Assembly: GCA_004332195.1 (NCBI GenBank)
Contig: SJBG01000005.1
Location: 37,563-101,562 of the forward strand
Direction: 5' to 3'
Length of the DNA stretch: 64,000 nucleotides
DNA from: Desulfobulbaceae bacterium
GTDB taxonomy: Bacteria; Desulfobacterota; Desulfobulbia; Desulfobulbales; Desulfurivibrionaceae
Below are positions 17,263 to 57,524 of the stretch, one piece after another. Position numbers and translations under genes: made by a program. The notes beneath the pieces were generated by a model. That model worked only from the letters and a program-made list of their open reading frames with translations, did not search any database and was not told the origin of the DNA. Position 1 is the first letter of the stretch, and each line of letters starts with the position of its first letter.

Positions 17263-17403
17263 GGCTATCTTGAAAAATTAGCTATTTTGTTCGAGTTTAC
17301 GGCCTGCGAAAAAAATTACCGCAGGCATATGGTTGATATTCCGAGGATAATTTTTTGAGCATAACGCAGAAATCGGGCGAAAGAGCAATTTTTCAAGGTG
17401 GCC
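17263..17403 (+). mobile_element. MITE copy 1 (141 bp, TSD TTAA)
   Basis: GGCTATCTTGAAAAATT...AATTTTTCAAGGTGGCC, flanked by TTAA on both sides. Confidence 0.92.
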
Positions 17404-17588
17404 TTAAGTTGATTTGATCTGGGGTTAGTCGGATTAGGCTTGGGTTAGGCTTGGCAATAAACCGACGTTTTCCCTTGACGAGGAAGGCGACACCCACTAC
17501 CCCCAACTCGGCCATTTCAAATGTTCATTACCGTCCCTTCAGCCGGGGTATTCACCCCAAAGTAAATCAGTACAAAGGAGGAAAACGT

Positions 17589-18512
17589 ATGTCCGTGTAT
17601 GTCGTAGGTCACTCCAGTCCCGATACCGATTCCGTCGCTGGCGCCATCGCCTTTGCCCATTACCTGAAGGCCACCGGCACCGAGGCCATTCCCACGGTCC
17701 AGTCCGACAAACTCAACCCCGAGAGCAAGCTGGTTCTGGAAAAATTCGGCCTGTCCCAGCCGGAACTGCTCAACGATGCCGCCGGTAAAGATTTGGCCTT
17801 GGTAGATTTCAGCGATATCGCCCAGGCCCCGGCCAACATTAAAGACGCCAACGTGGTAGCCATTGTCGATCACCACAAAATCGGCGACATCACCACCAAC
17901 AGCCCGATCTTTTTTTATGCCAAGCCGGTGGGCTGTGCCTGCACCGTGCTCAACGAGATGTACAAGAACAGCAAGATTGATCTACCCAAAAACATCGCTG
18001 GGGCCATGCTCTGCGCGATTCTCAGCGACACCGTCAACTTTAAGTCCCCGACCTGCACTGACGAAGACAAGGCGGCAGTCGAAGATCTGAAGGTCACCTC
18101 CGGGATCAGCGACACCGACGGAGTCTTTATGGAAATGCTCAAGGCCAAGTCATCCATCGCCGGGGTACCAATTAAGGACTTAATCTTCCGCGATTACAAA
18201 GATTTCGACATGGGTGGCAAGAAAATCGGGATCTGCCAGCTCGAGCTGGCCACCCTCGATCAAGTGGCCTCGATTCGGGCTGAACTGATCCAGGGTCTGG
18301 AAGCGGTTAAGGCCGAGGGTCGGCACTCCCTGATCATGATGCTTACCGACGTGGTTAAAGAAGGCTCTGATTTGCTGGTGCTCTCCGATGAGCCGGCGAT
18401 CATTGAAAAGGCCTTTAACGGCAAGATCAGCAATAAGTCCATGTGGATTGACGGCATGATGAGCCGCAAAAAACAAACCATCCCCCCCCTGTTGCGGGCT
18501 TTCGGCGCTTAA
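17589..18512 (+). CDS. ppaC: Manganese-dependent inorganic pyrophosphatase (family II, DHH)
   Basis: VGHSSPDTDS, LVDFS, IVDHH, ILSDT, RDYKDF, MMSRKKQ; RBS AAGGAGG before the ATG at 17589. Confidence 0.95.
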   Translation: MSVYVVGHSSPDTDSVAGAIAFAHYLKATGTEAIPTVQSDKLNPESKLVLEKFGLSQPELLNDAAGKDLALVDFSDIAQAPANIKDANVVAIVDHHKIGDITTNSPIFFYAKPVGCACTVLNEMYKNSKIDLPKNIAGAMLCAILSDTVNFKSPTCTDEDKAAVEDLKVTSGISDTDGVFMEMLKAKSSIAGVPIKDLIFRDYKDFDMGGKKIGICQLELATLDQVASIRAELIQGLEAVKAEGRHSLIMMLTDVVKEGSDLLVLSDEPAIIEKAFNGKISNKSMWIDGMMSRKKQTIPPLLRAFGA

Positions 18513-18556
18513 AGAAAATCGCAGGCCATTTAGCCACAAAGAAAAGAGGGAAAAAG

Positions 18557-18603
18557 AAAAAGGAAGAAACCGTGGCACTCAGCCCGGCTTTCTTCCTTTT
18601 TTT
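18557..18603. terminator. Likely bidirectional terminator between convergent ppaC and clpB
   Basis: AAAAAGGAAGAAA...TTTCTTCCTTTTT inverted repeat with A and T tails. Confidence 0.65.
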
Positions 18604-18649
18604 TGAATTTTGCATCTAATGAGAATGACGTCCGCAGCTCCGCGATAAA

Positions 18650-21259
18650 TCATGACCCAGCGTCCACAGCTTTGCTAAAGGTGAGCTCACGATTCTCCGG
18701 TGAACGGTCAATGAGGATGGTGTCGCCCTCGGCAAAAGCCCCTTCCAGCACCTTCATAGCCAGAGAGTTCTGAATGTGACGCTGAATCGCCCTCTTAAGC
18801 GGACGAGCTCCGTAGCTGGGATCGTAACCGACCTCAAGCAAAAACTCTTTGGCGGCGGTAGTCAACGCAATCCGGTAATTCTGTTCACTGAGCCGCCGGG
18901 TGAGCAGGTCAATCTGGATATCAACGATCCGGCTCATGTCTTCCCGGCTCAAAGCGTGAAAGATGATGATCTCATCAATTCGGTTCAAGAATTCCGGGCG
19001 GAACTGGGCATGCAAAATCTCATCGATCCGGCTCTTCATCTCTTCCCGCCGTTCTTCCCCCAGATCCATAATCAACTGGCTACCCAGATTGGAGGTCATA
19101 ATTAGAATGGTATTCTTAAAATCCACCGTCCGGCCCTGACCATCAGTCATTCGGCCGTCATCGAGAATCTGAAGCAGAACGTTAAAAACATCGGGATGGG
19201 CCTTTTCGATTTCATCAAAGAGAATCACCGAATAGGGCCGTCGACGCACGGCTTCGGTCAGGTAACCGCCCTCCTCGTAACCAACATAGCCCGGCGGGGC
19301 CCCGATCAGCCGGGCCACCGAATGTTTTTCCATAAACTCCGACATATCAAGCCGAATCATCGCCTTTTGGGTGTCGAAGAGAAAAGAGGCCAGACTTCGG
19401 GCCAATTCAGTCTTGCCCACCCCGGTTGGGCCTAAAAAAATGAAAGAGCCCAGAGGTCGATTGGGGTCCTGCAACCCCGCCCGGGCTCGACGCACCGCAT
19501 TGGCAATGGCGGCAATGGCTTCCTGCTGACCCACCACCCGGCGGCTTAGTTCCTGGTCGGCTTGAATCAGTTTTTCCTTTTCTCCTTCCAGTAGTCGGCT
19601 CATGGGAATCCCGGTCCACTTGGCCACCACGGCGGCGATATCCTCTTCGTCCACCTCTTCCTTGAGCATTTTGCGGTCCTGTTGGATTTCAGCCAGACGC
19701 TCGTTTTTGACCACCAACTCCTTTTCCAAGGCCACGATCCGGCCATAGCGGATTTCGGCAACTTTACTCAAATCCCCCTGACGCTCGGCCTGCTGCTCTT
19801 CCCTCCTGGTTTCGTCGATTTTGGCCTTTACCTCACGAATTTCCTGGATGATGTCCTTTTCCAGACTCCAGTGGCCCTTCATGGCGTGCAGGCCTTCATT
19901 GCAGTCGGCTAATTCGGCCTCCACCTTGACCAGACGTTTTTGGGAGTGTTGGTCGCTTTCTTTTTTGAGGGCCTCACGTTCGATTTGCAGCATAATCTTT
20001 TTACGCTCGATCACGTCGATTTCGGTGGGCATCGAGTCAATTTCAATCCGCAGACGCGATCCTGCCTCATCAATGAGATCAATAGCCTTGTCCGGCAGAA
20101 AACGATCGGAGATATAACGGTTGGAAAGGGTAGCGGCGGCTACCGTGGCCGAATCCTTAATTCGCACTCCGTGGTGAACCTCGTACTTCTCCTTAATCCC
20201 CCGGAGAATGGCAATAGTGTCCTCGACGCTCGGTTCTTGAACCAATACTTGTTGAAAACGCCGTTCCAGGGCCGCATCCTTTTCGATGTACTTGCGGTAT
20301 TCGTTTAAGGTGGTGGCCCCGACACAGCGCAACTCGCCGCGGGCCAAGGCCGGTTTGAGCATATTGGAGGCATCCATGGAGCCCTCGGCGGCCCCGGCGC
20401 CCACCAGGGTATGAATTTCGTCAATAAAGAGTACGGTTTCCCCCTGGCGCTGCCGCAGCTCCTTGAGTACCGCTTTAAGCCGATCCTCAAACTCGCCACG
20501 GTATTTGGTGCCGGCTACCAGGGCCCCCAGATCCAGGGCAATCACCTGTTTGTCGCGCAGGGTATCCGGCACGTCGCCATTGACGATGCGTTGGGCCAAG
20601 CCCTCGACGATGGCGGTTTTGCCCACCCCCGGTTCACCGATCAGCACCGGGTTATTTTTGGTCCGCCGGGAGAGAACCTGAATCACTCGCCGAACCTCAT
20701 CATCGCGGCCAATCACCGGGTCGAGCTTGCCCTTACGGGCCACATCGGTAAGATTAAGGGCGTATTTTTCCAGGGCCTGATATTTGCCCTCCGGATTGGG
20801 GTCGGTAACCCGCTGGCTGCCCCGCACCGTCACCAAAGCCTGCAAAAAAATCTCGCGATTAACCCCATTTTGGATCAAGGCCTTAGCGGCGGCAACGTCC
20901 CGGTCGTCAAGCAAGGCCAAAACCAGGTGCTCCTGGCTGACATATTCATCCTGCATCTCAGCCGCCACCTTGAAGGCCCGGTCCAGCAGACGTTGCAACG
21001 ATGGCGCGGTATAAATCTGGCCATAGCCACTGCCACTGACCTTGGGCAAACGGCTAAGCAGGATATCGATCTCGGCGACAAGCTTTTCCCGACTGACCCC
21101 CATTTTCTGCAAAACCGGGGCAATTACCCCGTCAGCTTGCGCCAGCAGGCCTTTGAGCAGATGCTCCGGCTGTATTTCCTGGTGCTGCAAACTCATAGCC
21201 AGGCTCTGAGCTTCCTGCATCGCTTCCTGCGATTTCATCGTCAACTTGTCGAATTTCAT
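18650..21259 (-). CDS. clpB: Chaperone ClpB
   Basis: Two AAA+ modules ([16 protein letters not shown]), coiled-coil M domain, [16 protein letters not shown]. Confidence 0.98.
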
Positions 21260-21403
21260 GATTACTTACTCCCAACTGGAAAAATAGCGACCAACCCCGT
21301 CTCGTCTGGGTAAGACAAGAAAGAACAGTTAAAATTTGGAGTTAAACAACAGAGTAATGCTGGAACAGAGTAATGCCAGTTGAAGCGTAGGCTGATGAAC
21401 CAG

Positions 21404-21434
21404 AAGTTAAGGCCACCTGGCAACGCTGTCAAGG
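21404..21434 (-). promoter_or_regulatory. Candidate heat-shock promoter of clpB
   Basis: Minus strand CCTTGACA-N15-CTTAA; the same motif and spacing occur upstream of grpE. Confidence 0.4.
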
Positions 21435-21565
21435 AAAGAAACGATGACGCCTCCTGGTTGTTGCGCTTTTGAGAAGCAACCGCCAGGATGATTGCGGTGA
21501 GGGGGGATGGAGGATGGGCTTGGGTGGGGAACTTAGCCGATCAGGAGGTCATGGCTTTGGAAGAC

Positions 21566-22615
21566 CTACTGATCGCTCTGGTCGAGATAAACCCAGTCAC
21601 GACCCGTCGACTTGGCTCGATAGAGGGCCTCGTCAGCCCGCTGCAGCCACTCTTCCAGAGCCAGTCCCGGCCACCAGGGAGCAATGCCAAGGCTGATTCC
21701 CAACCGCTCACTATCATTTTCACCAAAACTCAAGGCCGCCACCGTCTGGCAAATTCGCTGAGCCATTTTTTTTACGCTCTGAGTTCCGCTATCAGGCAAG
21801 ACCAAAATAAATTCATCGCCCCCCATCCGGATCAGCAAGTCAGTGGTGCGAACTGTAGCGACAAGAGCGGCGGCCACTCGGCACAGAGCCCGATCGCCCT
21901 CGGCGTGGCCCTGGGTATCATTGAGCTGTTTGAAACGGTTTAAATCCATGCTGATTATGGTCAAAGGGCGTTGATAACGATCGGCGCTTGCCATTAAGCA
22001 ACCGATTCTTTCGTCAAAAACCCGACGATTAGCCAAACCGGTGAGAGCATCGTGACGAGATTGTTCGAAAATATTTTCGTATTCCAAAGCCCGCTGCAAT
22101 GGCTCTGACAGGATGTTAATCGTTCGGGCCAACAATGTAACACCATCGGGGTCAATCACCTGTTTGCGACGCATAACCATGATCTGACCGCTATCGTTAG
22201 CCAGATCCAACCGCCAACAACAACCATAATATTCGCCATCTCGAAAGCAGGGGTCATCAACATTCGCCAGACCCTCGTCGAGCAACCGAAACGCGGCCTG
22301 GATAATCTGGCGACGAACAGAGCCATGGTGGGAACAAGCAATATGCTTGCGAGTTTTAGCGGTATTGCGAAAAACTACCAGGTCATGCTCGATCTGCGGC
22401 ATCAACCAGACGGAAAAAGCTTCCAGCATCCCGGACAGATCTGCCGCCCCAGCTAAACGTGCCTGTAATTTATTGACCATGACCAACCAAGCCGACTGCC
22501 GACGATAATGGTCAAGCTGAACCAACAAGCTGCGGACATGGTTCTCGCTATCGGGAAATCCCGGGGTTAAACCGCTCAAGTCGATGTTTTGCCGCGTGGC
22601 AACAATAGCGTTCAT
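21566..22615 (-). CDS. Diguanylate cyclase (GAF-like N-terminus + GGDEF)
   Basis: DALTGLANRR, DLNRFKQLNDTQGHAEGD, RTTD I-site then GGDEF, ADEALYRAK. RBS AAGGAG before MNAIV (22615). Confidence 0.9.
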   Translation of the reverse strand: MNAIVATRQNIDLSGLTPGFPDSENHVRSLLVQLDHYRRQSAWLVMVNKLQARLAGAADLSGMLEAFSVWLMPQIEHDLVVFRNTAKTRKHIACSHHGSVRRQIIQAAFRLLDEGLANVDDPCFRDGEYYGCCWRLDLANDSGQIMVMRRKQVIDPDGVTLLARTINILSEPLQRALEYENIFEQSRHDALTGLANRRVFDERIGCLMASADRYQRPLTIISMDLNRFKQLNDTQGHAEGDRALCRVAAALVATVRTTDLLIRMGGDEFILVLPDSGTQSVKKMAQRICQTVAALSFGENDSERLGISLGIAPWWPGLALEEWLQRADEALYRAKSTGRDWVYLDQSDQ

Positions 22616-22874
22616 AGCCTGCTCCTTGACAACGAAAATCAAACAGTAGATGCATCGGACGACAACTAACCAAATCCAATATGCTATTTCCATGCCAAGA
22701 AACAGAAAAACTCTTCAAAAAAAGGAACAGCAGGTCTTCTTAATTGTGAAAAACAGCAAGTTGCAAGCAAAATATAAAGCTCAAAGGCATGACAAGACAA
22801 CACCGCCAATCGGCAAACCAAGTCACAGACAAACAGGGGTTTTGACAACAGAGGAAAACCAAAGAAAGACTAAG

Positions 22875-22915
22875 GGCTACCTTGAAAAATTAGCTATTTT
22901 GTTCGAGTTCAAGGT
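22875..22915 (+). mobile_element. Internally deleted MITE remnant
   Basis: GGCTACCTTGAAAAATTAGCTATTTTGTTCGAGTTCAAGGT: the left end of the MITE, stopping at the TTCAAGG shared by the internal segment and the right TIR. Confidence 0.8.
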
Positions 22916-22972
22916 AATTTTTACCACAGCGTTCAAACTTCCAGGGCAGAAGCCCACCGAACCTACCGTGGA

Positions 22973-23938
22973 TCAGTATTTTAGACCAACCTGCTCCCGA
23001 ACCCGGTTCAGGGTGGGTGTCGCCTTTTCCCGGGCCTTGAGCGCGCCGCGCCGAAGGATGTCCCGTACCTGGGTCGGATTGGCTCGCAACTGCTCCCGCC
23101 GCGCCCGGGCCGGTCGAAAGTAGTCCCACAAAAACTCCAGCAGCTCCAGCTTGATTTTCCCGTACATGGCCCCACCGTTGACATAGAGATTGCGAACATC
23201 AGCTAAACGGTCGGCTGGAGCAAACAACTTGAAAATATTGTAAAGATTGCACTTGTCTGGATCTTTGGGATCGGCCACCGGAGTTGAGTCGGTGACGATG
23301 GCCATTACCTGTTTTTTCAACTCTTTTTCGTCGGCAAAAATCGGGATGGTGTTGCCGTAGGACTTGGACATTTTCTGGCCATCGAGTCCCGGCACCACCG
23401 CCAGGCCGGTGTCGATAGCCGGCTCGGGCAGAACGAAGGTGTGGCCAAAGGCGTGGTTGAATTTGTTGGCGATATCGCGGGCCACCTCCAGGTGCTGTTT
23501 CTGGTCATTGCCTATTGGCACTCGTTCGGCCTGGTAAAGCAAAATATCGGCGGCCATCAGCACCGGGTAGGAAAAAAGGCCGTGACTGGCGGCAATCCCC
23601 CTGGCGATTTTATCTTTATAAGAGTGACAACGTTCCAATAAACCCAAAGGGGTGATGGTTGAAAGAATCCAGGCAAGTTCAGTCACCTCGGGCACGTCGG
23701 ACTGGATCCAAAAAACACAACGTTCCGGGTCCAGCCCCAGAGCCATAAAATCAATAGCCGCCCCCAGACTGTCTGCGGCCAATCTTGAGCCATCGTGCAC
23801 CGAGGTCAGAGCATGAAGATCAACCACAAAGGCATAAAGTTCGTTTTCCATCATGCTGACGATCATCGGCCGCATCATCCCAAAGTAGTTACCGATGTGC
23901 AGACGGCCGGAAGGTTGAATACCTGAGAGAACACGCAT
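22973..23938 (-). CDS. trpS: Tryptophan--tRNA ligase
   Basis: SGIQPSGRLHIGNY (HIGH), YPVLMAADIL, VPIGNDQKQH, KMSKS. Confidence 0.97.
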   Translation of the reverse strand: MRVLSGIQPSGRLHIGNYFGMMRPMIVSMMENELYAFVVDLHALTSVHDGSRLAADSLGAAIDFMALGLDPERCVFWIQSDVPEVTELAWILSTITPLGLLERCHSYKDKIARGIAASHGLFSYPVLMAADILLYQAERVPIGNDQKQHLEVARDIANKFNHAFGHTFVLPEPAIDTGLAVVPGLDGQKMSKSYGNTIPIFADEKELKKQVMAIVTDSTPVADPKDPDKCNLYNIFKLFAPADRLADVRNLYVNGGAMYGKIKLELLEFLWDYFRPARARREQLRANPTQVRDILRRGALKAREKATPTLNRVREQVGLKY

Positions 23939-23948
23939 GGCAAGGTTC

Positions 23949-23993
23949 CAGGGGGACAGGGGATCAGGGAAGTCAGGAGTCAGGAGCCAGGGA
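23949..23993. repeat. Heptamer tandem repeat (AGTCAGG-like) between dnaK and trpS
   Basis: caggggg acagggg atcaggg aagtcagg agtcagg agccagg. Confidence 0.6.
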
Positions 23994-24071
23994 ATCGACC
24001 ATCTAACCCGGGGACTATCAGACCCCTCTCTCCAGAAACAACCAAAACTAGCGGCGCTGTTGAGCTTTTTC

Positions 24072-26000
24072 CTATTTGACCTCTTCGTAGTCGGCGTCGA
24101 CTACGTCTTCGTCCTTATCAGGGCGGCCGGCCCCGGCCTCGGCCGCCGTCGCGCCAGCCGCACCAGCCGCGCCGGCGCTAGCCGCACCCGGTTGACCAGC
24201 CTGGGAGTACATTATCTCCGCCAATTTGTGCGAGGCCTGGGTCAGGGTTTCAATTCCCTTATTGATCGCCTCAACATCATCACCTTCCATCAGCTTGCGT
24301 AAGTTGGCAATTTCGCTTTCCACCTTATCCTTGGTCTTGGCATCGACCTTGTCTCCCAGGTCCTTAATGCTCTTCCCGGTGGCATAGACCAGGGAATCGG
24401 CCTGATTACGGGCCTCCACCAAGGTTCTGCGCTTGCGATCTTCATCGGCGTGCAGATCGGCATCTCGCGTCATCCGCTCAATCTCATCCTTGGAAAGTCC
24501 GCTGGAGGCCTGAATTTTAATGAACTGCTCCTTACCAGTACCCATATCCTTGGCTGAAACATTGAGGATTCCGTTGGCGTCCAGATCGAAAGTAACTTCG
24601 ATCTGGGGCAAGCCCCGGGGGGCCAGGGGGAGGTTGGCAAGATCAAAGCGACCGATGGTCTTGTTAGTGGAAGCCATCTCGCGCTCACCTTGCAGCACAT
24701 GGATTGATACCGCCGGCTGATTATCCGCCGCCGTGGAAAAAATCTGGCTCTTCTTGGTGGGAATGGTGGTGTTCTTCTCAATCAACTTGGTCATCACTCC
24801 CCCCAGGGTTTCAATACCTAAAGAGAGTGGGGTAACATCCAGCAACAGGACATCTTTGACCTCGCCCCTAAGAACCCCTCCCTGGACGGCGGCGCCTATG
24901 GCCACCACCTCGTCGGGATTGACTCCCTTGTGGGGATCCTGGCCAAAAATCTCCTTGACCTTCTGCTGGACCAGCGGCATCCGGGTCATGCCGCCCACCA
25001 GAATCACCTCATTAATTTCGGAAACGCTCAAGCCGGAATCCTTCAGGGCCGTGCGACAAGGACCCACGGTGCGCTCAATCAAGTCTGCCACCAGGGCTTC
25101 CAGTTTGGCTCGGCTCAGCTTAATATTGAGATGTTTGGGCCCGGAGGCGTCGGCGGTGATAAAGGGCAGGTTGATATCGGTTTCCATGGTGGTGGAAAGC
25201 TCCATCTTGGCCTTTTCCGCATCTTCCTTGAGCCGTTGCAGAGCCATTTTGTCCTGACGGAGATCAATTCCCTGGTCACGCTTAAATTCGTCGGCCAACC
25301 AGTTGACGATTCGCATGTCAAAGTCTTCACCGCCGAGGAAGGTGTCCCCGTTGGTAGCTTTAACCTCGAAAACCCCGTCGCCGATTTCCAGAATCGAAAT
25401 ATCGAAGGTGCCTCCACCCAAGTCGAAGACGGCGATTTTTTCTTCCTTCTTTTTGTCCAGACCATAAGCCAGGGCGGCGGCGGTCGGCTCGTTGATAATC
25501 CTCTGGACGTTGAGTCCGGAGATCTTGCCTGCATCTTTGGTAGCCTGACGCTGGGAGTCGTTGAAGTAGGCCGGCACGGTGATTACCGCGTCGGTCACCT
25601 CTTCCCCCAAATACTCCTCGGCAGTTTGCTTCATTTTGGTCAGCACCATGGCGGCAATTTCCGCGGGAGCGTATTTTTTGCCATCCACCTCAACAAAGGC
25701 GTCACCGCCTGGACTCTCAACTATTCTGAAAGGGCTGATTTCAATACTTTTGCGAACCTCAGGGTCAGTGAACTTGCGGCCGACCAAACGCTTGATGGCA
25801 TAAAGAGTCCGACTGGGGTTGGTCACCGCCTGACGCTTGGCCACTTGGCCCACCAGGCGCTCGCCTGCGTCATTGAAGGCCACCACCGATGGGGTGGTTC
25901 GGTTGCCTTCGACGTTGGTGAGCACTTTAGGCTCGCCACCCTCCATAATCGCTACGCAGGAATTGGTTGTTCCCAGATCAATACCAATGATTTTACCCAT
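24072..26000 (-). CDS. dnaK: Chaperone DnaK
   Basis: [41 protein letters not shown]. Confidence 0.99.
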
Positions 26001-26092
26001 GATTAATGCTCCTTGTCTAAAAATATCCCGGCTGATTAAGCCATTTATTATTCACCGTACTTCCGTGATCATTATTGCCAATTACGGCCCGT

Positions 26093-26725
26093 TCAGTCGT
26101 CAGTGCTGGCGCCGTCACCCCTGCCGCTGGAAACTACCACCTTGGCGGCCCGCAGCAGACGATCCTTGTAAAAATATCCCCGCTGGAATTCGCTGATAAT
26201 GGTATTGGCCGGGACCTCAGGGCTGACCTCCATGACTAAGGCCTCATGGTAATTAGGATCAAAAACCGCACCCCGACTATTCATGGCTTTGAGTCCGAAC
26301 TTCTCCAAAGCCCCGATCAATCCATTGTGCGTCATCTTCACCCCCTCGAGCAGGATGGAGGCATCGATCGCATTGCGACCCTGCTCAATGGATCTCTCTA
26401 GATTGTCCAACGGGGACAGCAACTCCTTGAGAAGATTCTCTTCGGCGTACTTGAGGGAAGTTTCCCGCTCCCGCTGAATCCGCTTTTTGTAATTTTCGAA
26501 CTCAGCGGCCAGCCGCAGTACCCGATCTTCAAGTTTGTGAGCCTCAGTCCGAGCCGCGTTGAGCTGAAACAACAAATCTTCGCCTTCACCAGCCTCGGTT
26601 TGCGCGGTACTCTGTAGTTGACCGTCACCCTCCGGCCCGACTTGCGCGCTTACAACCTTTTGCTTATCCTCCAGATTCTTATCCTCCAAATTCACGACGT
26701 CCTCCCGGGAGCTGAAAAAAGGCAT
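26093..26725 (-). CDS. grpE: Nucleotide exchange factor GrpE
   Basis: LRLAAEFENYKKR, LDNLERS, FDPNYHEA, GYFYKDRLLRAAKVVV. The start may be GTG at 26695. Confidence 0.96.
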   Translation of the reverse strand: MPFFSSREDVVNLEDKNLEDKQKVVSAQVGPEGDGQLQSTAQTEAGEGEDLLFQLNAARTEAHKLEDRVLRLAAEFENYKKRIQRERETSLKYAEENLLKELLSPLDNLERSIEQGRNAIDASILLEGVKMTHNGLIGALEKFGLKAMNSRGAVFDPNYHEALVMEVSPEVPANTIISEFQRGYFYKDRLLRAAKVVVSSGRGDGASTDD

Positions 26726-26895
26726 TGTTAAATGAGTATGGATTTGTAAAAAACCTGCCGGGTGTTTTTACCTGAATTATATCTGAGTTAGCTATCCAAA
26801 ATTAACAATGCCGAAAAAGATGTGACTCACCGCCAACAAAGTCACAACCAAACGATTTTTACTGACCGTAATATTGTGGTAATTCAACAGCCGGG

Positions 26896-26927
26896 AACTT
26901 TAAGTACGGCCTTTGGCCTTGTCAAGG
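26896..26927 (-). promoter_or_regulatory. Candidate heat-shock promoter of grpE-dnaK
   Basis: Minus strand CCTTGACA-N15-CTTAA, matching the clpB upstream motif. Confidence 0.4.
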
Positions 26928-27296
26928 CGCAACGAGGCAAAATATAAAACGATGGTGGAAATTCCGGCTCACCTTTTAATTTTTAAACGGTCTGCGTGGT
27001 AGCCGGGCCACCGGTGGAGTCGGCAGTGTCTGTATATGTAAAAGTGCCAGCGAATTCTAGGTTGTCTGTGGCAAACCAGTTTAAAAAAAGTCTCTATGCC
27101 TTGCGTTTCAGTCTTGCCGGGTAACTGATTGTAAGCAGAGCCTGAATCCAGAATATCACTCGTTCAATAATAACAGTTAATAAAGGTAGCCTTAAATCTT
27201 GCTTGGTTATCAAAGTTGCCACCTGTTCGCCTACAGAACCTCCTGCAGCCGCAGTCCATAAGAATAGACAAAAAACTGAACTCCCGTCCTTTAATT

Positions 27297-29327: not shown

Positions 29328-29467
29328 GGCCGCCTTGAAAAATTAGCTATTTTGTTCGAGTTTACGGCATGCGAAAAAATTACCGCAGGCATATGGTTGA
29401 TATTCCGAGGATAATTTTTTGAGCATAACGCAGAAATCGGACGAAAGAGCAATTTTTCAAGGTGGCC
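29328..29467 (+). mobile_element. MITE copy 2 (140 bp, TSD TAGA)
   Basis: TAGA-GGCCGCCTTGAAAAATT...AATTTTTCAAGGTGGCC-TAGA. Confidence 0.93.
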
Positions 29468-41618: not shown

Positions 41619-41759
41619 GGCCACCTTGAAAAATTAGCTATTTTGTTCGAGATCAAGGCATGCGAAAAAAAATACCGCAGGTATATGATTGATATTTCGA
41701 GGATAATTTTTTGAGCATAACGCAGAAATCGGGCGAAAGAGCAATTTTTCAAGGTGGCC
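41619..41759 (+). mobile_element. MITE copy 3 (141 bp, TSD AAAA)
   Basis: AAAA-GGCCACCTTGAAAAATT...AATTTTTCAAGGTGGCC-AAAA. Confidence 0.92.
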
Positions 41760-48413: not shown

Positions 48414-48751
48414 GTCGCCTCTCCCCGGTCGGATGATGGCGGGGTCGTTTGGCGAGCAGCCGCCAGCCTTTTCTGAATGCGCTTCTTTAAGTGCATCAAT
48501 GGCTTGATGTGACGCACCGAGCCAAAACGTTCTTCGACCGCCAACAACTCATCCTTAAGGCTTTTCGCCCCTTTTTCCGCGACGGGATAGTCTTCCACCG
48601 TGACATGGGTTATATCCATCCGCTTGAAACGCTCGATAATGCTTGCGGAAAGTGCTGTGGCTTTGCCGCAGAGTACCCGGTTATCGGTAGTCATCACGTC
48701 CTTAGCCAGAATCATGCCCTCGGTCGCTTGAGCTATTGAAATCTGTTGCAC
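48410..48751 (-). CDS. Hypothetical protein resembling the N-terminal accessory domain of HD-GYP proteins
   Basis: GMILAKDV...RVLCGKATALS..IIERFKRMDI..V.V; RBS AGGAG before GTG; coupled to the HDOD gene. Confidence 0.65.
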   Translation of the reverse strand: MQQISIAQATEGMILAKDVMTTDNRVLCGKATALSASIIERFKRMDITHVTVEDYPVAEKGAKSLKDELLAVEERFGSVRHIKPLMHLKKRIQKRLAAARQTTPPSSDRGEAT

Positions 48752-49024
48752 TTTTTTCTCCTGTAAACTGTGATTCCACCAGTTTCGCTCGAAGGGCAAC
48801 CACGGAAATTACAACCCGTGCGATTGACAGATTGCCCTACCGACATTATGTTACAGTCTGCGACCGGCGTAAACGCAACCCTGGGAACGCTGCAATCGTA
48901 CGACAGATGTTAGCCAAAAGCAATCTTGCTTATTAATCTCTGTATTTGGTTCCGCTCATTCTGCCCAAGGAGTGCTCAGGCTGCAATAAAGACAAAAAAA
49001 CAATTGATTTAAGGAGTTGTCACC

Positions 49025-49318
49025 ATGCCTATTTACGAATACAAATGTCAATCTTGTCAAAAAATCACCGAAGCCCGACAAAGCATCGTCGATACCCCGC
49101 TGGCCACCTGTTCTCATTGTCAAGGGAGGCTGAATAAAGTCATCTCCCAGACCTCCTTCCAACTCAAGGGCGGCGGTTGGTACTCCGACGGCTACTGCGG
49201 CGCCAACGGCGGCCAAAGTTGCGCCGCCAAATGCCCGGCTGCCGCGGCCACCCCGCAAGCCTCGGCGGCCGCGGCCGCGCCATCTTGCGCCGACAATAAA
49301 ACCGCCTGTGGCGGTTGA
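49025..49318 (+). CDS. FmdB family zinc-ribbon protein
   Basis: MPIYEYKCQSC...CSHCQG.L.K.IS...FQLKGGGWY. Confidence 0.92.
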   Translation: MPIYEYKCQSCQKITEARQSIVDTPLATCSHCQGRLNKVISQTSFQLKGGGWYSDGYCGANGGQSCAAKCPAAAATPQASAAAAAPSCADNKTACGG

Positions 49319-49331
49319 GTAACCCGTTTTC

Positions 49332-50510
49332 TCACTTCATCCGAATCGCCATGGCATCGCCATAGCTGAAAAAACGGTAACCCTGCTTGATAGCGTGGGC
49401 ATACGCTGCCAGAATCCTTTCCCTTCCGGCCAGGGCGCTAACCATAAAAAGCAGGGACGAGCGGGGCAGATGAAAATTGGTCAACAGATTATCCACCACC
49501 CGGTAGCGATAACCAGGATAGATGTAAAGATCCACCATCCCGGATCCCGAGCGGATCATGCCATCATTTTCGGCGGTTTCGGTGGCCCCGGCCGCCTCTA
49601 AGGCCCGCACCGATGTGGTGCCTATCGCCCAGATTCGGCCGCCAGCGGCCTTAGTTCGGTTAATCAGGGCCGTATCCTGCTCGGTGATGGCGTAGTATTC
49701 AGAATGAATATCGTGCTCGCGAATATCGGAGCAACGGACCGGGGCAAAAGTACCGTAGCCGACATGGAGCGTGATCTGAGCCAGATTGACCCCTTGCCCC
49801 TTAATCACGCCCAACAGCTCCTGGGTAAAATGCAGGCCAGCCGTAGGGGCCGCCACCGACCCAGTTACTTCCGCGTAAACCGTCTGGTAGCGTTGACTGT
49901 CCATGGCGCTGGCCTCATCCCGCCGGATGTAGGGCGGCAAGGGCACCTGGCCGTAACGATCAAGGCAGGCATCCAGCGCGACATTGGCGGCCGTCTCCTT
50001 CCTGCCGCCGCCATATAAAATCACTTGAACCAGTCCGTTCTCGCCTACATCGGTCACCTCGGCCTGACAATCATCAGCAAAAATCAACCGCGTCCCGACT
50101 CGAATCCTCGAGCCTTTCACTAAAGCCTGTGCCGTAAAGCGGTGACCTTCCGCTTCCCCGCTTGCGGCTCCATCGGCATTAGCCTCTTCGCGGCGGCCGC
50201 CTGCTCTTCCGGTTGCAGTCCCATTGGGACCGGCAACCACCCGGGGATATTCCAACAGCAACAGTTCGACGCGGCCGCCGCTTTGCTTGTGTCCCAACAA
50301 ACGGGCGGGGAACACTTTGGTATTATTGAAAACCAGCAGATCACCGGGGGCAAGTAAGGTCGTAAAATCGGGAAAAACACCGTCCACCAAGGTGTCACGG
50401 GGGGTGTCAAGAATCAGCAAACGTGAATCTTCACGCCGGGAAGTCGGATGTTGAGCGATCAGTTCCGGCGGCAGCACAAAATCATAATCATCCAAGGAAA
50501 AGGTAGTCAC
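49332..50510 (-). CDS. queA: SAM:tRNA ribosyltransferase-isomerase QueA
   Basis: DFVLPPELIAQHP, FNNTKVFPARL, PLPPYI, YQTVYA, AAPTAGLHF, TNFHLPRSS, YRFFSYGDAM. Confidence 0.98.
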   Translation of the reverse strand: MTTFSLDDYDFVLPPELIAQHPTSRREDSRLLILDTPRDTLVDGVFPDFTTLLAPGDLLVFNNTKVFPARLLGHKQSGGRVELLLLEYPRVVAGPNGTATGRAGGRREEANADGAASGEAEGHRFTAQALVKGSRIRVGTRLIFADDCQAEVTDVGENGLVQVILYGGGRKETAANVALDACLDRYGQVPLPPYIRRDEASAMDSQRYQTVYAEVTGSVAAPTAGLHFTQELLGVIKGQGVNLAQITLHVGYGTFAPVRCSDIREHDIHSEYYAITEQDTALINRTKAAGGRIWAIGTTSVRALEAAGATETAENDGMIRSGSGMVDLYIYPGYRYRVVDNLLTNFHLPRSSLLFMVSALAGRERILAAYAHAIKQGYRFFSYGDAMAIRMK

Positions 50511-50540
50511 TAGAGTATTGCTCCGTAGTTAGGAAAACAG

Positions 50541-50741
50541 CTAGGAAAACAGCTCGGTACGCTGGGCCAGATAGCAAAGAAAAAAACCAAATCCCAGAGC
50601 GATCAAGCCGACCCGGCGCATGGTCGCAGGCTCAACCTCCTGAATCTGCCGCAACCAGCGCTGCATGGCTTCAGGACAAGCAGCATATGGTAACGCTTCA
50701 ATAATCAAAATCAGGCCGATCAAGGTCAGCAACAGTTCCAT
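50541..50741 (-). CDS. DUF2065 / YjeT-like small membrane protein
   Basis: LIGLILIIEALPY...P......L......MRRVGL pattern. Confidence 0.8.
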   Translation of the reverse strand: MELLLTLIGLILIIEALPYAACPEAMQRWLRQIQEVEPATMRRVGLIALGFGFFLCYLAQRTELFS

Positions 50742-51060
50742 GTGAACAACATTCCCCCTTATCTGTAAAAGTGCATCAGTGCCTTTTTTGACTGAGCGCC
50801 AATATAACCGAGCAGGCTACAAGCTGCAAACTTTCGCTGACAACAAAAAAGTACCTTTATCGCCAAGTCCCTGGTAGAATGCCAGTCTTTGATCTGTCTT
50901 TTCCCGGGAAAATCCGGTTAAAAGTTGAAGATCGGCTAACACTTAACAAAAAGCCAAAACGGCCCTCTTTTCGGCGGGGGCTTTAACCTTGATTTGAGAC
51001 CAGTAAAAAGGCGAGAGACCCACGGTCACTCGAGGAGATCATCACAGAGAGGCTTTGCTT

Positions 51061-51660
51061 ATGACCACCGGCAAAACGCGGCGGGGAGAGATACGTCGTC
51101 ACACCAAGGAAACCGACATCAACCTGAGCCTGACTCTGGACAGTCGAGGCGCCGGCAACATTGGCACCGGGGTGGGTTTCATGGACCACATGCTGACTTT
51201 GTTCGCGGTTCATGGTTTTTTCGACCTGGAGATTAAGGCCAGCGGCGATATCGAGGTGGACGATCATCACACCGTCGAGGACCTGGGCATCGCCATGGGC
51301 CAGGCCTTAAAGCAGGCCTTAGGCGAAAAGGAGGGTATTCGTCGCTACGGCGCGGCGGCCGTCCCCATGGATGAAACCCTGGTCCGGGTTACCCTGGATT
51401 GCTCCAACCGCCCCTACCTCCACTACGGGGTCAAGGTCCCAGACAGCAAGGTGGGCAACTTCGATACCGCCCTGGTCAAAGAATTTCTTCAAGCATTCTC
51501 CCTCCACGGTGGTCTCACCCTGCACGTGGAGATGGTTCATGGTGAGAACAGTCACCATATTTTCGAGGCCATTTTCAAAGCCCTGGGCCGCGCTCTGGAC
51601 CAGGCCGTCACCTTTGAGCCCCGCCTGCAAGGACCACTGTCATCCAAGGGGGTACTCTAG
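51061..51660 (+). CDS. hisB: Imidazoleglycerol-phosphate dehydratase
   Basis: RHTKETDI, GFMDHML, DDHHTVED, PMDE, NSHHIFEAIFKA, SSKGVL. Confidence 0.98.
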   Translation: MTTGKTRRGEIRRHTKETDINLSLTLDSRGAGNIGTGVGFMDHMLTLFAVHGFFDLEIKASGDIEVDDHHTVEDLGIAMGQALKQALGEKEGIRRYGAAAVPMDETLVRVTLDCSNRPYLHYGVKVPDSKVGNFDTALVKEFLQAFSLHGGLTLHVEMVHGENSHHIFEAIFKALGRALDQAVTFEPRLQGPLSSKGVL

Positions 51661-51801
51661 GCCACCTTGAAAAATTGCTCTTTCGCCCGATTTCTGCGTT
51701 ATGCTCAAAAAATTATCCTCGGAATATCAACCTTAATGCCTGCGGTAATTTTTTTCGCATGTCTTAAACTCGAACAAAATAGCTAATTTTTCAAGGTGGC
51801 A
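51660..51801 (-). mobile_element. MITE copy 4 (inverted; one TIR imperfect, no clear TSD)
   Basis: GGCCACCTTGAAAAATTGCTC...AGCTAATTTTTCAAGGTGGCA, the reverse complement of the other copies. Its first G completes the hisB TAG stop. Confidence 0.9.
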
Positions 51802-51966
51802 GCCTGCCTGGAACATCCGGAATGCACCAAGGACCCGCGGTCTGATCTGAAGTCCACCAAGGATCTCAGAAGTCCGGGGTCTGATCCGGCATCAGATCTG
51901 GCTAAGAGCCCGGCGCCAGGCCAGGCAATTGCCGTGGCCGGCGGTACCCGCCTGAAGACCGCCCTT

Positions 51967-52980
51967 TCAACTCAACCTGGCCATATCCTTAGCAAAATAA
52001 CTAAGAATAATATCGGCTCCGGCCCGCCGAATGGCCAGTAGACTTTCAACCATCACCCGCTCTTCGTCCAGCCAACCTTTGGCGGCGGCGGCCTTGAGCA
52101 TGGCGTATTCACCGCTGACCTGGTAGGCGGCAAGGGGGTGATCAAACTCGTCGCGGAGCATCCGGATGATATCGAGATAAGCCATGGCTGGCTTGACCAT
52201 CAAAATATCGGCGCCTTCCTCCAGATCCAGGGTGGCTTCGCGCAAAGCCTCGCGGCTGTTGGCCGGGTCCATCTGATAGCCCCGCCGGTCACCCTCCTGA
52301 GGAGCGCAATCGGCAGCCTCGCGAAATGGTCCGTAAAAGGCCGAGGCATATTTGACGGCACAGGACATAATCGCCACCTGATCAAAATTGTCCTGATCCA
52401 GCGCCGCCCGAATTGCCCCCACCCGACCATCCATCATGTCCGAGGGTGCGACAATATCGGCTCCCGCCATGGCATGTGATCGGGCGATCCGGGCCAGAAC
52501 CTCCAAGGTGGCATCGTTATCCACCTGCTGGTTATGGATAATCCCACAATGGCCGTGGCTGGTATACTCACAAAGACAAACATCGGTGATCACGGTTAAC
52601 TCCGGGGCCTTATTCTTCAACTCTTTGATCGCCCGTTGAACGATACCATCGGTCCCGTGAGCCGCCCCGTGAGCCGCCCCGTGAGCCGCCCCATGGGCCC
52701 CAGAACCCACCCGATCTTTTTTTTCCGGCAAACCAAAGAGGAGCAAGCTGTTGATTCCCAAACCCCGGCATTCCTGGGCTTCCTTGGCCAACTGATCCAC
52801 CGACAGACGAAAAACCCCAGGCATGGAGGAAATTTCCTCCCGCTTTTGCTTACCGGGCATCACAAAAAGGGGATAAATCAATTGAGCCGGGCTCAAAACA
52901 GTTTCCCGCACCAGGGCGCGGAGGTTCTCGTTGCGCCGCAACCGACGGGGTCGATATTCAGGATAAATCATAATCTGCAA
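51967..52980 (-). CDS. hemB: Porphobilinogen synthase (Zn type)
   Basis: [56 protein letters not shown]. Confidence 0.98.
52654..52701. repeat. 12-bp tandem repeat inside hemB (3 perfect + 1 degenerate)
   Basis: cccgtgagccgc x3, encoding [16 protein letters not shown]. Confidence 0.93.
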
Positions 52981-53039
52981 CTCCTTAGTGAAAAGCGAAA
53001 CAGCCGAAGGTCAACTTGCGGCAAGCAGCTAGTGTCGTG

Positions 53040-54839
53040 TCAATCCAGCTTGAAGGCTTTACTCACCGCCTGGTCGATAAAATTATCCGGGGCATCAATC
53101 CCGGCGGCCGAAATGAGCAACTCAACCGTTTTACTTCGCTGACTAAGTAAGCGCAGCCCATGCTCCATGGTTTGCAAAACCTGGTCGCAGACCTGGTTGA
53201 CCGAGGCCTTATTCCGAGGGTGACGAGCCAGGATTCGATCCATTGCGCCCTCACTAAAGGATAAGGTCAGGCCGCAATGCACCGAGATTTTATGAGCTCG
53301 CTCATTGATCAGGCCTATCAGGCCGACGAAGCGTTGACAAACCTCCCGGGGCTCCAGATCTTCTCCTTCCACATCTAGAGCCATCATCCGCAACCGCTCT
53401 GGTGTCAACAAAACATCATGACAGTCCATATAGTCCCCCAGCTTGTCGCAAATAAAGTCCATCATGCCTTGGAGTTCCACCTCCGCCAGTTTAGCGCATT
53501 GTTCGACATGCAGGCGGCGATAATCGACGTCCTTAAACAGTTTGGTCAGCACCGCCGTCGGGTCGGCTACCAGTTGGGCATCAACCACCAAGTGGTGGAT
53601 ATCGCTGGAGGGCAGTCTTCTCTCAAAGTGGAGCAGTACTCGTTCCGTCACGCTAACCAGGGCTCGGGCCCCGGTACGTTCGAGGGCGGCCAGGGCGGCG
53701 ATTTGCCTTAGAGCCTCGTCGGTAAAACGTAAGTCAATGCCGTAGGCCCGAAAATCCTGTTTTTTGCCTATCACCACCGTGCTGTTTGGGTTGCTTAAAA
53801 TGGCGTAAAGATCATCCTCGCTCAACCCAGCAAGAACCGCCACCACCGGCAAACGGCCGACAAACTCCCCTTCAAAACCATAAGTCACCAGGTCTTCGGC
53901 CTTGACTTTGGCAAGAAAGGTTCCGGGATTAAGCATCGCAGCGGCCACCGTACTCTCAAATCCGATGGAGCGCTGCTGCAAACGCCGCTGAACAATCTTC
54001 TCTAAACCATCAAAAACGCCACTCATGATAAAAAGGATATGACGGGTATTGATACTTTGGCGACGACGTTTGCCGGTAAGACGGTAATGTTCCATGGCCT
54101 CGATCATCGAAACGGGATCGTGCGGCACCCTCATTTCCACCTCGGTTTCCTCCATAGGCTTAAGCAAAGCCCGCTGGACTCCGCTGCGGGAGACATCCAG
54201 ACCCCGCTGCAGCTCGCCTCCACTGGCGATTTTATCAATCTCGTCAAGATAAATAATGCCGAACTGGGCCCGTTGCAGGTTATTGTCGGACTCCCGGACC
54301 AGATCGCGAATCAAGTCTTCAACATCACCGCCGACATAGCCGGTTTCGCTGAATTTGGTGGCATCTCCTTTAACAAAAGGCACTCCAATGTAACGGGCGA
54401 TCAACTTGATCAGAAATGTTTTACCAACCCCGGTGGGACCGATCAGCAGTACGTTGTTTTTGGTTCGGCCAACATTACGACCGCCCGACTTCCCACCAGG
54501 GCGAGCCAGAGAGCGACTGATCCGATTGAAATGGGTGCAGATTTTGGTGGCTAAAATGGCCTTGGCTTCGTCTTGGCCCACCACGTATTGATCAAGGTGG
54601 TTGATCAATTCCTCGGGGGGCAAATCGAAGTGGAATGCCGGCTCCTCTGTCGTCAGGCTGACACCCTCATTATCATCCTCGTTGGTTAAAGGAAATTGAC
54701 CGGTGGAAACAATCCTCACCCTTCTACCGTATTTATTGCTCAAATATGCGCTAATTTCCCGCTCCAGCTCTTTTTGGTCGGGGAAAGTCGCATTCTTGGT
54801 ATCCGGCGTATCATTGACATCTTGGGGAATATCACTCAT
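53040..54839 (-). CDS. ClpX-like AAA+ ATPase with no N-terminal Zn domain and a long C-terminal extension
   Basis: [44 protein letters not shown] loop, EFVGRLP, TGARAL. Confidence 0.85.
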   Translation of the reverse strand: MSDIPQDVNDTPDTKNATFPDQKELEREISAYLSNKYGRRVRIVSTGQFPLTNEDDNEGVSLTTEEPAFHFDLPPEELINHLDQYVVGQDEAKAILATKICTHFNRISRSLARPGGKSGGRNVGRTKNNVLLIGPTGVGKTFLIKLIARYIGVPFVKGDATKFSETGYVGGDVEDLIRDLVRESDNNLQRAQFGIIYLDEIDKIASGGELQRGLDVSRSGVQRALLKPMEETEVEMRVPHDPVSMIEAMEHYRLTGKRRRQSINTRHILFIMSGVFDGLEKIVQRRLQQRSIGFESTVAAAMLNPGTFLAKVKAEDLVTYGFEGEFVGRLPVVAVLAGLSEDDLYAILSNPNSTVVIGKKQDFRAYGIDLRFTDEALRQIAALAALERTGARALVSVTERVLLHFERRLPSSDIHHLVVDAQLVADPTAVLTKLFKDVDYRRLHVEQCAKLAEVELQGMMDFICDKLGDYMDCHDVLLTPERLRMMALDVEGEDLEPREVCQRFVGLIGLINERAHKISVHCGLTLSFSEGAMDRILARHPRNKASVNQVCDQVLQTMEHGLRLLSQRSKTVELLISAAGIDAPDNFIDQAVSKAFKLD

Positions 54840-55065
54840 GGCTGTCCCATAATGACGGCGCGTTGTCGAAGTTCACCAACACCCCATCTTCGCCCATCTT
54901 GGCCTTCTTTACGTGGCAAACTACGCTTCGGAGTCCCAAGTGCGCGAAGCTGAAGCGCTGGTAAACTTTTACAGCTCTTAATTTCGCTAAATTCAATGGC
55001 CCTAACATACTATCACGCGCGGTTAATTTTGGACGAACTTAAAAATCTCTAAAGCGCACAGCAAA

Positions 55066-56040
55066 TCACGCTATAGCCAGTTCCTTTATTTTTCTATGGA
55101 GGTGGCTGCGTTCAAGACCGATTTGCTCCGCCGTCTGGCTGATATTACCACGATTGTCCTTAAGACACATCCGCAAATATTTTCGCTCAAAAACCTGCTT
55201 GGCATCCCGATAATTCAGATGGCGAAATTCTTCGCCAAACCGCTCAAGACCAACCGCGCTACCTTGGGCGGGCGCCGCTAACGAAGAGGAGGTAATGTTC
55301 AACAAGTTTCGGATCGATTCCGCGGAGATTAATGTTTCTGAACTCATGATCAAGCTCCGCTCGATAAAGTTGCGCAACTCCCGAACATTGCCCGGCCAGC
55401 CGTACTCCTGCATGACCACCAGAGACTCCGGGGCAAACTCCTTGCCGCTTAGGCCCTTGCGACTGCATTCCTGCAAAAAGTCGGCCACCAGCAGGGGGAT
55501 GTCCTCGAGCCGCTGGCGCAGCGGCGGCACAAACATTCGCTTGGGTTTGCAAGCTCATATCGCCAATTTCGTCGAGGAACAACAGGCCACCGTCAGCAAG
55601 ATCAAACTTGCCGCGCCGGGCCGTGACCGCCCCGGTAAAAGATCCCTTTTCATGGCCAAAAAGCTCACTTTCAATCAGCTCTTCGGGAATGGCGGCGCAG
55701 TTAAGTTCCACCATGGGCCGATGCACCGCAAGTGAAAGCCGATGGATGGTCTGGGCCACCAACTCCTTGCCGGTCCCGTGCTCTCCGCGCACGAGAACCC
55801 AGGCATCGGTGGGGGCCACCAGCTCAATTTGACGGCGAAGATTGTTAATGACCGCGGAGTTGCCGGTCAAAACGTGCCGTTTGACCTGCTGTCGAAGAAT
55901 GGAGTTTTCCTCCTCCAGCCTGGAGAGCCGCAGGGCATTGTTGATCGCCAAAATAATCTTATCATACGAGAGCGGTTTTTCAACAAAGTCATAAGCCCCC
56001 AGGCGCGTGGCCTGCACTGCGGTTTCAATAGTACCGTGAT
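55066..56040 (-). pseudogene. ntrX: NtrX-like sigma-54 response regulator, truncated and internally deleted
   Basis: Begins abruptly at HGTIETAV (mid-receiver). GEHGTGKE, NCAAIP, ESELFGHEKGSFTGA and FLDEIGD are present. QTQA is then joined out of frame to FVPPLR near 55536. WPGNVREL and the Fis HTH (QTAEQIGLERSHLHRKI) follow. Confidence 0.88.
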
Positions 56041-57324
56041 TGGAGAATGGTTTCGGTGTAGCGTCGACGTTGGTCCAACTCCATCGTGGTCTGGTCAATC
56101 TGGTGGCGGCCGTTGAGCAAGTCCCGAGTCATCAGGTTAAAAGAGTCAGCCAAGATTCCCATCTCATCGCCCGAGGTTTTTTCCAAAACAAAGTCAAGCT
56201 CTCCCTCCGTTACCAGCCGGGTGGCCGCGGCCAGCTTTTGGATCGGGCCGGTAAGGCCCGCGGCCACATAAAAGCCAAACCAGATGGCGCAAAAAAACAA
56301 TAAGCAGGGTGACGATCAACAAAGTAACCAGCAAGCTGGTTTTAATCGGAGTCTGGAACACCATCAGTTGGCGATAACCTTCCAGACCCGAGGAGATGAT
56401 GGCCATCCGCTCAAGAAGTTCGGTCGGGATCAGACGGGAAAGGACCAGAACCGCTAGCTCCCCCTCGCGGCCAGTCAGAGCGAACGGGGTGAGGCTGCGC
56501 ACCAGTTACCCGGTCGCCACTTCCTGGATCACCACCTGGCCACCCGCGCCGGCCAGGGCCCCGCGCAGCATCTCCCCCGGAAGCTCCGGCAAATTGGCGG
56601 CCACTATCGGCTGGTAAATGGCCAGCAGACTGTTGTGCTCCTGCCCAATGATTTCGATTCCGCTCAAACCGTAGCTGACCAGCGTATCGCCCAAAAAAAA
56701 GGTTCCATCTCGGTGACGAGCACAAAACGTTGACGATCGGATTGCAACTGATCGGCAATGACCTCACCCTCGCGGATGGTCTCGGCCTGAGTTTCCCGAT
56801 AAACATCACGAGCCACTTCCAGGGATTCGACCAGAGAGTGCTCGACGTTGATGTTGAACCAGTAATCCATGCTGGCGGAGATGAACTGCAGGGAAACCAA
56901 AAAGAGCAACCCGGTGGGGATCAGCGACAAGGAAATAAAGGAGATAACTAACTTGGTTCGTAGTTTGGCCCCCAGCACTTGGCCGGCGCCGTTCAAAAAC
57001 CAATTCCACCAAGTTGCGCAGCACCAGAAAAATCACCGTCACCAGCAACAGGAGGTTAATGTTAATCATGACGAAGATCAACAAGTTGCCGCTGATCGGC
57101 AGCTCAAGCTCGCCCAGCTTAAAAATCCTGGTCTCAAGAAAAATCGAAAGCGCCAAAAAGAACAGACAGACAAAAATGATCCAGCGCAAGCGCCGCTGCC
57201 GTCGGCGTCGGCGATCACCCCTCGATCCTCCCTCACCCATCACTTCAGGGCGATTTTCCGCAGACCACACCTCTTTTGCCTGAATATTTTCCCGGAGCTT
57301 GCCAGTCATCTTTGTTACGTTCAA
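56040..57324 (-). pseudogene. ntrY: NtrY-like sensor kinase, fragmented and C-terminally deleted
   Basis: Fragments: KLRTKLVISF...PTGLLF...S.DYWF; GYRQL..FQTPIK; HAMP GPIQKLAAATR...DEMGILADSFN.M; YTETILQ. Frameshifts near 56981, 56693-56700 and 56291-56297, and an in-frame TAA at 56506-56508. PAS, HisKA and HATPase domains are absent. Confidence 0.88.
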
Positions 57325-57384
57325 AATTTAATTACGGCCTGACAGGAAAGCGCTAACCGCTTTTTCAATTATGCTTCGCCTAAT

Positions 57385-57524
57385 GGCTACCTTGAAAAAT
57401 TAGCTATTTTGTTCGAGTTCAAGGCATGAAAAAAAATTACCGCAGGCATCTGGTTGATATTCCGAGGATAATTTTTTGAACATAACGCAGAAATCGGGCG
57501 AAAGAGCAATTTTTCAAGGTGGCC
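57385..57524 (+). mobile_element. MITE copy 5 (140 bp, TSD TAAT)
   Basis: TAAT-GGCTACCTTGAAAAATT...AATTTTTCAAGGTGGCC-TAAT. Confidence 0.93.

Follow-up and report, generated by a model that had tools for sequence, protein, structure and literature searches.

What placed near-identical repeats of about 140 bp between the genes of a 64,000-nucleotide stretch of a Desulfobulbaceae genome, and are they still able to move? The stretch, here called the window, corresponds to contig C17:37563-101562 of the assembly under study (GCA_004332195.1, hereafter G000; contig SJBG01000005.1). The assembly comprises 1.66 Mb in 21 contigs with 54% G+C, was scored 100% complete, and is small for the genus, in which relatives have 1.8-3.1 Mb. 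An earlier reading of the window (the original prediction) had described the repeats as a MITE (miniature inverted-repeat transposable element), mobilized in trans by an insertion sequence (IS) with matching ends. The explanation that best accounts for the results below, to which we give a probability of roughly 0.85, is that they are a MITE of IS5 type, present in ~150 copies and orphaned in G000, whose hairpin core is common to a phylum-wide superfamily.

All five copies and the single remnant were found where they had been predicted (Table 1), and the five intervals align as one 140-142-bp element, with a mean column identity of 87% when the flanks are included. The left end reads GGC(C/T)A(C/T)CTTGAAAAATT and the right end AATTTTTCAAGGTGGCC, the reverse complement of GGCCACCTTGAAAAATT, and the terminal inverted repeats extend over 17 bp. 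The four different 4-bp duplications reported for these copies are exact, the inverted copy being the one that has none. As had also been claimed, the six loci are intergenic and lie between long open reading frames (ORFs). The inverted copy begins on the last base of a stop codon: two flank bases and the first base of the MITE together form the TAG of hisB (51658-51660), a gene whose IGPD domain is complete.

A profile built from full copies and searched over G000 returned 148 loci (118 full and 30 partial) that sum to 20.1 kb, or 1.2% of the genome. This equals one locus per 11 kb, the density that had been estimated from the window and extrapolated to perhaps hundreds of copies. The 145 left-type and 145 right-type ends in the assembly pair at 120-176 bp, with copy lengths concentrated at 140-142 bp. 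Another 21 copies, 172-184 bp long (the 174-bp subfamily), have one common 33-bp internal insertion that folds as a separate small hairpin; since the insertion recurs in 21 dispersed copies, the variant copy must itself have been propagated. At 141 or 174 bp, the copies are too short to encode a transposase.

Transposition left a clear record on the flanks. An exact 4-bp target duplication borders 74 of the 118 full copies, where chance would give 0.46, and in a further 24 the duplication differs at one position, in agreement with the predicted non-autonomous element that duplicates its target. Duplications of 1-3 and 5-8 bp stayed at or near chance among the same 118 copies, including those of 2 bp (7 observed, 7.4 expected). 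The duplicated tetramer is T-W-W-A, with C before it in 44/74 cases and G after it in 48/74, which identifies the palindrome C-TWWA-G as the preferred target. Empty sites, the check suggested together with the original prediction, were sought by joining both flanks of every copy and searching the joined sequence against G000. Copies at C1:239591, C18:56563, and C4:32203 sit within members of three other small repeat families, and once the MITE and one copy of the duplication are removed, each locus is collinear with uninterrupted paralogues in which the tetramer occurs once. These are precise paralogous empty sites.

The type of transposase that could have moved the copies is indicated by other genomes of the order Desulfobulbales. 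IS5-family elements (NCBIfam NF033581, transpos_IS5_4) with ends of the window's class occur in three of them, G097, G063, and G102. G097 has 14 IS5_4 transposase matches; the four copies inspected there are about 1334 bp long, encode a transposase of 337 amino acids (281 bits to NF033581), and end in GGGCACCTTGAATAATG and GGGTTCCTTGAAAAATAG. The ends of the G102 element read GGGAATCTTGAAA, and the form common to the three genomes is GGG(C/T/A)(A/T)(C/T)CTTGAA(A/T)A(A/T)T. The duplications made by these elements are all 4 bp long (TAAT and TCAT in G097, TATA in G063, GATG in G102), and IS5_4 copies in a further genome, G135, duplicate CTAA and CTAG. IS and MITEs reside together in two of these genomes, unlike in G000, whose assembly has no such transposase: at least 40 MITEs in G097 and at least 24 in G063 (where there is one IS) are homologous to those of the window over positions 6-137, with ends GGGGGCCTTGAAAAATT / GGGAACCTTGAAAAATT and 4-bp duplications such as TTCA, TAAA, TGAA, and TAAT. 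The window MITE end and the G097 IS end agree at 14/17 positions, both starting with GG, and share a short GCYATTTT stretch; the AT-rich palindromic 4-bp target of the MITE is comparable to the YTAR/CTAG targets of IS5. The proposal of mobilization in trans by an IS with matching ends is supported, IS5 being one of the three IS families then named, with the qualification that this IS is not in G000.

Several other candidates were considered and set aside. IS5_1 elements (NF033578) have somewhat similar ends (GTCGNYCYTGAAAAA), but lack the core and make 6-7-bp duplications; in G135 these are TAGCTG, TAGTCTA, TAATTC, GAAGTA, TAGGATA, and TACCTA, a length that resembles ISNCY_1 elements and not IS5_4. 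IS1182 elements of other genomes lack the core and have nothing in common with the MITE, and an IS4-like element in G031 has a 15-nt match that lies outside its own inverted repeat and was taken as chance. Where MITE ends form IS-sized pairs in other genomes, the genes between them are ordinary ones and not transposases.

The MITE belongs to a much larger set of sequences. It was not found in eight genomes of the same genus and was present in 1 of 15 other genomes sampled from the family, and homologous sequence, often covering positions 23-120 only and at most 90% identical, occurred in 10 of 16 other families sampled from the order. A core-pattern scan of named genomes identified this order as Desulfobulbales, with carriers in Desulfobulbus rhabdoformis, Desulfogranum, Desulfocapsa, Desulfotalea, Desulfofustis, Desulfopila, Desulforhopalus, and Desulfosediminicola. 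In a sample of the phylum, 31 of 301 genomes had matches (~10%, G000 counted), and these come from many families beyond the order; in five other genomes an unverified first pass gave more than 100 candidates each (162-321), with scores taken for only two in each genome. These foreign elements retain the length (141 ± 2 bp) and the core but differ in their ends, which fall into at least four classes (c1-c4, Table 1), a fifth type being flanked by CTAG. Compared by class consensus, the ends (17 nt) show 6-59% identity and the cores 75-93%. Because the foreign elements were retrieved through their core, with positions 62-86 fixed by the search pattern, this comparison shows one core with several types of end, not that cores are generally more conserved than ends.

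One of the sister classes leads to a second transposase lineage. ISNCY_1-type elements (NF033593), which we take to resemble the ISDol1 group of ISfinder with its 6-7-bp repeats, have c2-type ends in Desulfobulbales. In G097, eight aligned copies out of nine identical transposase matches define an ISNCY_1 element of 1698 bp that is flanked by 6-bp duplications (TAGTTA, TACTTA, TATTTA, TAAATA, TAATTA), and its right end resembles the left arm of the c2 MITE over about 45 nt, at ~80-83%. Class c2, which is part of the same 141-bp hairpin family, shows both traits expected of ISNCY_1-dependent elements (GTGTCY... ends, here GTGTCYRTCCAGAAAY, and 6-7-bp duplications, here typically 6-bp TANNTA, the same kind as those of the 1698-bp IS), whereas the window copies show neither, their ends being different and their duplications 4 bp long. 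The interior of the window MITE is no deletion derivative of the matching IS5 element: the core is shared with MITEs that have other ends and another transposase lineage.

The MITE consensus forms one rod-like hairpin with an energy of -54.9 kcal/mol (-28.4 ± 4.1 after shuffling), and the hairpin covaries in the foreign elements. Among 56 of these, core pairs outside the search pattern are canonical in 81% of cases, compared with 38-52% after a shift of the partner by 1-3 columns, and 15 of 32 such pairs have changed on both sides, compared with 5-10 in the slid controls. For example, the pair 31-112 is A-T in 35 elements, G-C in 13, and T-A in 5, and the pair 52-90 is T-A in 35 and A-T in 21. 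The written strand folds better than its complement in 118/118 G000 copies (-54.5 vs. -40.7 kcal/mol) and in 55/56 foreign copies, with T-G (U-G) pairs kept at fixed positions. This strand specificity is consistent with constraint acting on the single-stranded molecule, be it RNA or one of the two DNA strands.

Such a fold, together with a core that recurs between end classes, would also be expected if the element were mainly a functional module of structured RNA or single-stranded DNA (for instance an mRNA 3′-end stabilizer, a terminator, or a processing site), conserved through selection for that role and merely spread by transposon ends. Location relative to genes agrees with this alternative in part. 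By a simple longest-ORF call, under which 87.5% of the genome is coding, 120 of 143 placeable G000 loci fall between genes, and 23 share more than 20 bp with a called ORF; in 20 of these the ORF has less than 170 amino acids and may be a spurious call, and in three a long ORF is touched at one end only. Among the 64 full copies that lie between same-strand genes, 30 are within 30 nt of the upstream stop and 13 within 30 nt of the downstream start. However, orientation relative to the flanking genes is not significantly biased in full copies (39 same, 25 opposite, p = 0.10), and an apparent bias of 48 to 27 with partial copies counted in was discounted for this reason. Rfam returned no match at the gathering threshold, the best hit being a plant miRNA hairpin model at 26 bits with a cut-off of 83. 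The conservation of the core in the foreign copies is partly a matter of ascertainment, given how they were found, and the strand asymmetry could come from shared ancestry. The hairpin may equally serve transposition itself. We consider it unlikely that the family is mainly an RNA or single-stranded DNA module.

A related idea deserves somewhat more credit, although we regard it as doubtful: the hairpin might be a self-standing functional module, acting in a transcript or as single-stranded DNA, that has persisted across Desulfobacterota through repeated swaps of its terminal repeats. If so, the swapped ends would exploit whichever IS5-superfamily transposase is present (IS5-type with 4-bp or ISNCY-type with 6-bp duplications), and the covarying, strand-specific structure would have been selected for a role in gene expression or transposition rather than being transposon debris.

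Whether the MITE of IS5 type still moves depends on the transposases of G000. No IS-sized pair of its ends exists anywhere in the assembly, so the suggested search for a transposase ORF bounded by the same ends came out negative, and thirteen solo ends that might have belonged to a parent IS are truncations running into unrelated sequence. Profiles for the transposases of IS5_4 (NF033581), IS5_1 (NF033578), and IS1182 (NF033551) have zero matches in G000, and PF01609 (DDE_Tnp_1) matches two decayed elements only, the ISNCY_1 remnant and the IS1182 remnant. The ISNCY_1, IS1182, and ISL3 fragments are all decayed, those of ISNCY_1 and IS1182 being frameshifted or truncated, and were rejected as parents of the MITE. 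Two IS3-family elements, 1279 and 1294 bp long, make up the multi-copy IS at which contigs break; each has at least six copies at 99-100% identity and TG...CA ends, and these appear to be the currently active IS of the genome.

The copies might nonetheless still be mobile in G000 if they were cross-mobilized by the resident IS3 elements, by an ISNCY_1 or IS1182 remnant, or by an IS5-type copy missing from the assembly. Ten of 4371 pairs of 141-bp copies are at least 99% identical, and the assembly is fragmented, with MITE copies at several contig ends. Yet the ends of the IS3 elements (TGAGGTAGG... and TGATCTTCC...) are unrelated to those of the MITE, which also removes them as its source; the ISNCY_1 and IS1182 copies are in the state just described; and the mean pairwise identity of the 141-bp MITE copies is 92%, as against 99-100% for IS3. 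We consider present mobility improbable. Repeats that do not transpose by a DDE enzyme but are spread by a tyrosine or HUH enzyme or by recombination, such as REP/BIME (repetitive extragenic palindromes and the mosaic elements built from them) with their RAYT (REP-associated tyrosine transposase) or IS200/IS605-type palindromes, can be dismissed almost entirely: they too are long palindromic hairpins, intergenic and of high copy number, but they have neither fixed-length target duplications nor 17-bp terminal inverted repeats, whereas 4-bp duplications and precise empty sites fit cut-and-paste DDE insertion, and the empty sites show that the 4-bp flanks do not belong to a conserved target motif of single occurrence.

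Taken as an IS5-type MITE, the family probably arose as follows. An IS5-family DDE transposase acting in trans would have moved a 141-bp non-coding DNA transposon, recognizing ends of the type GGNNNCCTTGAAWAAT and cutting AT-rich C-TWWA-G sites with a 4-bp stagger. The transposon would have been amplified to about 150 copies in a reduced Desulfobulbales genome in which the source of transposase was since lost, or never fixed. As the partner IS is not in G000, the copies are probably no longer mobile there; they would now be orphaned and slowly decaying, mostly kept in intergenic DNA near gene 3′ ends. The rod-like interior is that of the phylum-wide superfamily, with ends fitted to different IS5-superfamily transposases. 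Plausibly, the core began as an ISNCY_1-type end that folded back upon itself, with later lineages gaining ends that fit IS5_4-type transposases. The identification of the element as a MITE, and of its likely type of partner, comes directly from the sequences. Several observations weigh against this account. The G000 assembly contains no transposase with matching ends, and a partner IS might lie hidden in an assembly gap. Similarity between the window MITE and the G097 IS ends after about 25 terminal nt, so that the MITE is no simple deletion derivative and its interior is not derived from the IS. In addition, two of the five partner-IS copies inspected lack a clean duplication, and orthologous empty sites were not obtained from same-genus genomes, where synteny is broken and DNA identity is ~75%; the genes that flank the copy at 41619, for example, are not adjacent in those genomes.

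As a kind, the family is ordinary. Correia/NEMIS in Neisseria, ERIC/IRU in enterobacteria, RUP in pneumococcus, and Chunjie in Geobacter uraniireducens are likewise intergenic full-length hairpins of 100-200 bp with terminal inverted repeats, occur in many copies within a small genome, and frequently lack a resident partner, but are unrelated to the window MITE in sequence. Correia elements have TA duplications and 26-bp ends, whereas a 2-bp duplication is unenriched in the window family. To our knowledge, none of these families has been reported with a single core common to several end classes that different transposases serve. Chunjie, at 178-235 bp, is also longer than the 141-bp MITE (PMC10969869). 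Literature searches on the end sequence, on MITEs of Desulfobulb* taxa, and on ISDol1 gave no relevant description, and with the Rfam result this makes the family an uncatalogued one. What is unusual about it is that one hairpin core is combined with exchanged ends and with two transposase partners. Because the family occupies 1.2% of a reduced genome, adjoins many genes, and interrupts the assembly where several contigs end, it matters for the annotation and assembly of such genomes. It would illustrate cleanly, in nature, how a burst of MITEs can outlast the transposase, and the wider family would offer a test case for the switching of transposase partners by MITEs and for RNA-level selection on hairpins.

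Table 1. Positions and ends of the repeat copies, end classes, and other mobile or repeated elements (window coordinates for the first six rows).
Feature	Position	Strand	Ends	Duplication or remark
Full MITE copy, 141 bp	17263..17403	+		TTAA on flanks
MITE remnant, first 41 nt of left end (terminal inverted repeat + ~24 nt)	22875..22915	+		Truncated
Full MITE copy, 140 bp	29328..29467	+		TAGA on flanks; divergent spacer upstream of hydrogenase large-subunit-like ORF
Full MITE copy, 141 bp	41619..41759	+		AAAA on flanks; occupies most of 239-bp spacer between two same-strand ORFs
Full-length MITE copy, inverted	51660..51801	-		No target duplication; outer base mutated, T not G
Full MITE copy, 140 bp	57385..57524	+		TAAT on flanks
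End class c1 (window's)			GG(G/C)YAYCTTGAAWAATT	Exact 4 bp in 8/12
End class c2			GTGTCYRTCCAGAAAY	Exact 6 bp in 9/22, plus one of 7 bp; typically TANNTA
End class c3			GAGCCTTTTGCAAAAY	Exact 4 bp in 13/14
End class c4			TGAGTCTGTTGATTTA	Exact 4 bp in 3/4
IS5_1-type elements, about 1494 bp	L188, L204, L217-L222 (G135)		GTCGGCCATGAAAAA	
ISNCY_1-type remnant	G000 C16:97001-98062			Decayed transposase gene in three frames, about 100 codons missing
IS1182-type fragment	G000 C16:24217-24874			Decayed
IS3-family element	G000 C1:99003-100281			6 more copies
IS3-family element	G000 C16:92786-94079			5 more copies, one at 5′ end of contig C17, outside the window
Other small repeats	G000 C1:199313-199420, C15:160743-160851, C1:17649-17760			About 30 more
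Other small repeats	G000 C19:49676-49804, C2:1748-1873			
Other small repeats	G000 C1:20097-20211, C1:274733-274847			

Some minor observations concern the surroundings of these elements. The ISNCY_1 remnant on C16 is followed by GTTTCCGGATGGAAAC, a class-2/6-type end, and the IS3-family copy at C2:25982-27256 adjoins a truncated MITE. In genome G040, two truncated inverted MITE left ends, both after CTAAA, bracket 2.7 kb (C5:52334-55079) with at least four ordinary-looking ORFs, the largest of which looks by eye like an EamA-like membrane protein; the arrangement could be due to chance or could form a composite-like unit. G000 is unusually rich in short dispersed repeats: MITE copies inserted in them revealed at least three further small families of ~110-130 bp, one of which is palindromic and has ~30 or more copies. 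The 174-bp subfamily is exemplified by the copy at C2:37789-37962, and in several species MITE copies have short internal insertions, GC-rich and 20-35 bp long, that fold as small hairpins. Those of three copies from other genomes (L035, L036, and L073) are mutually alike (GGTAAGCG...GACTCCGA), a hint that an even smaller element may have been inserted.

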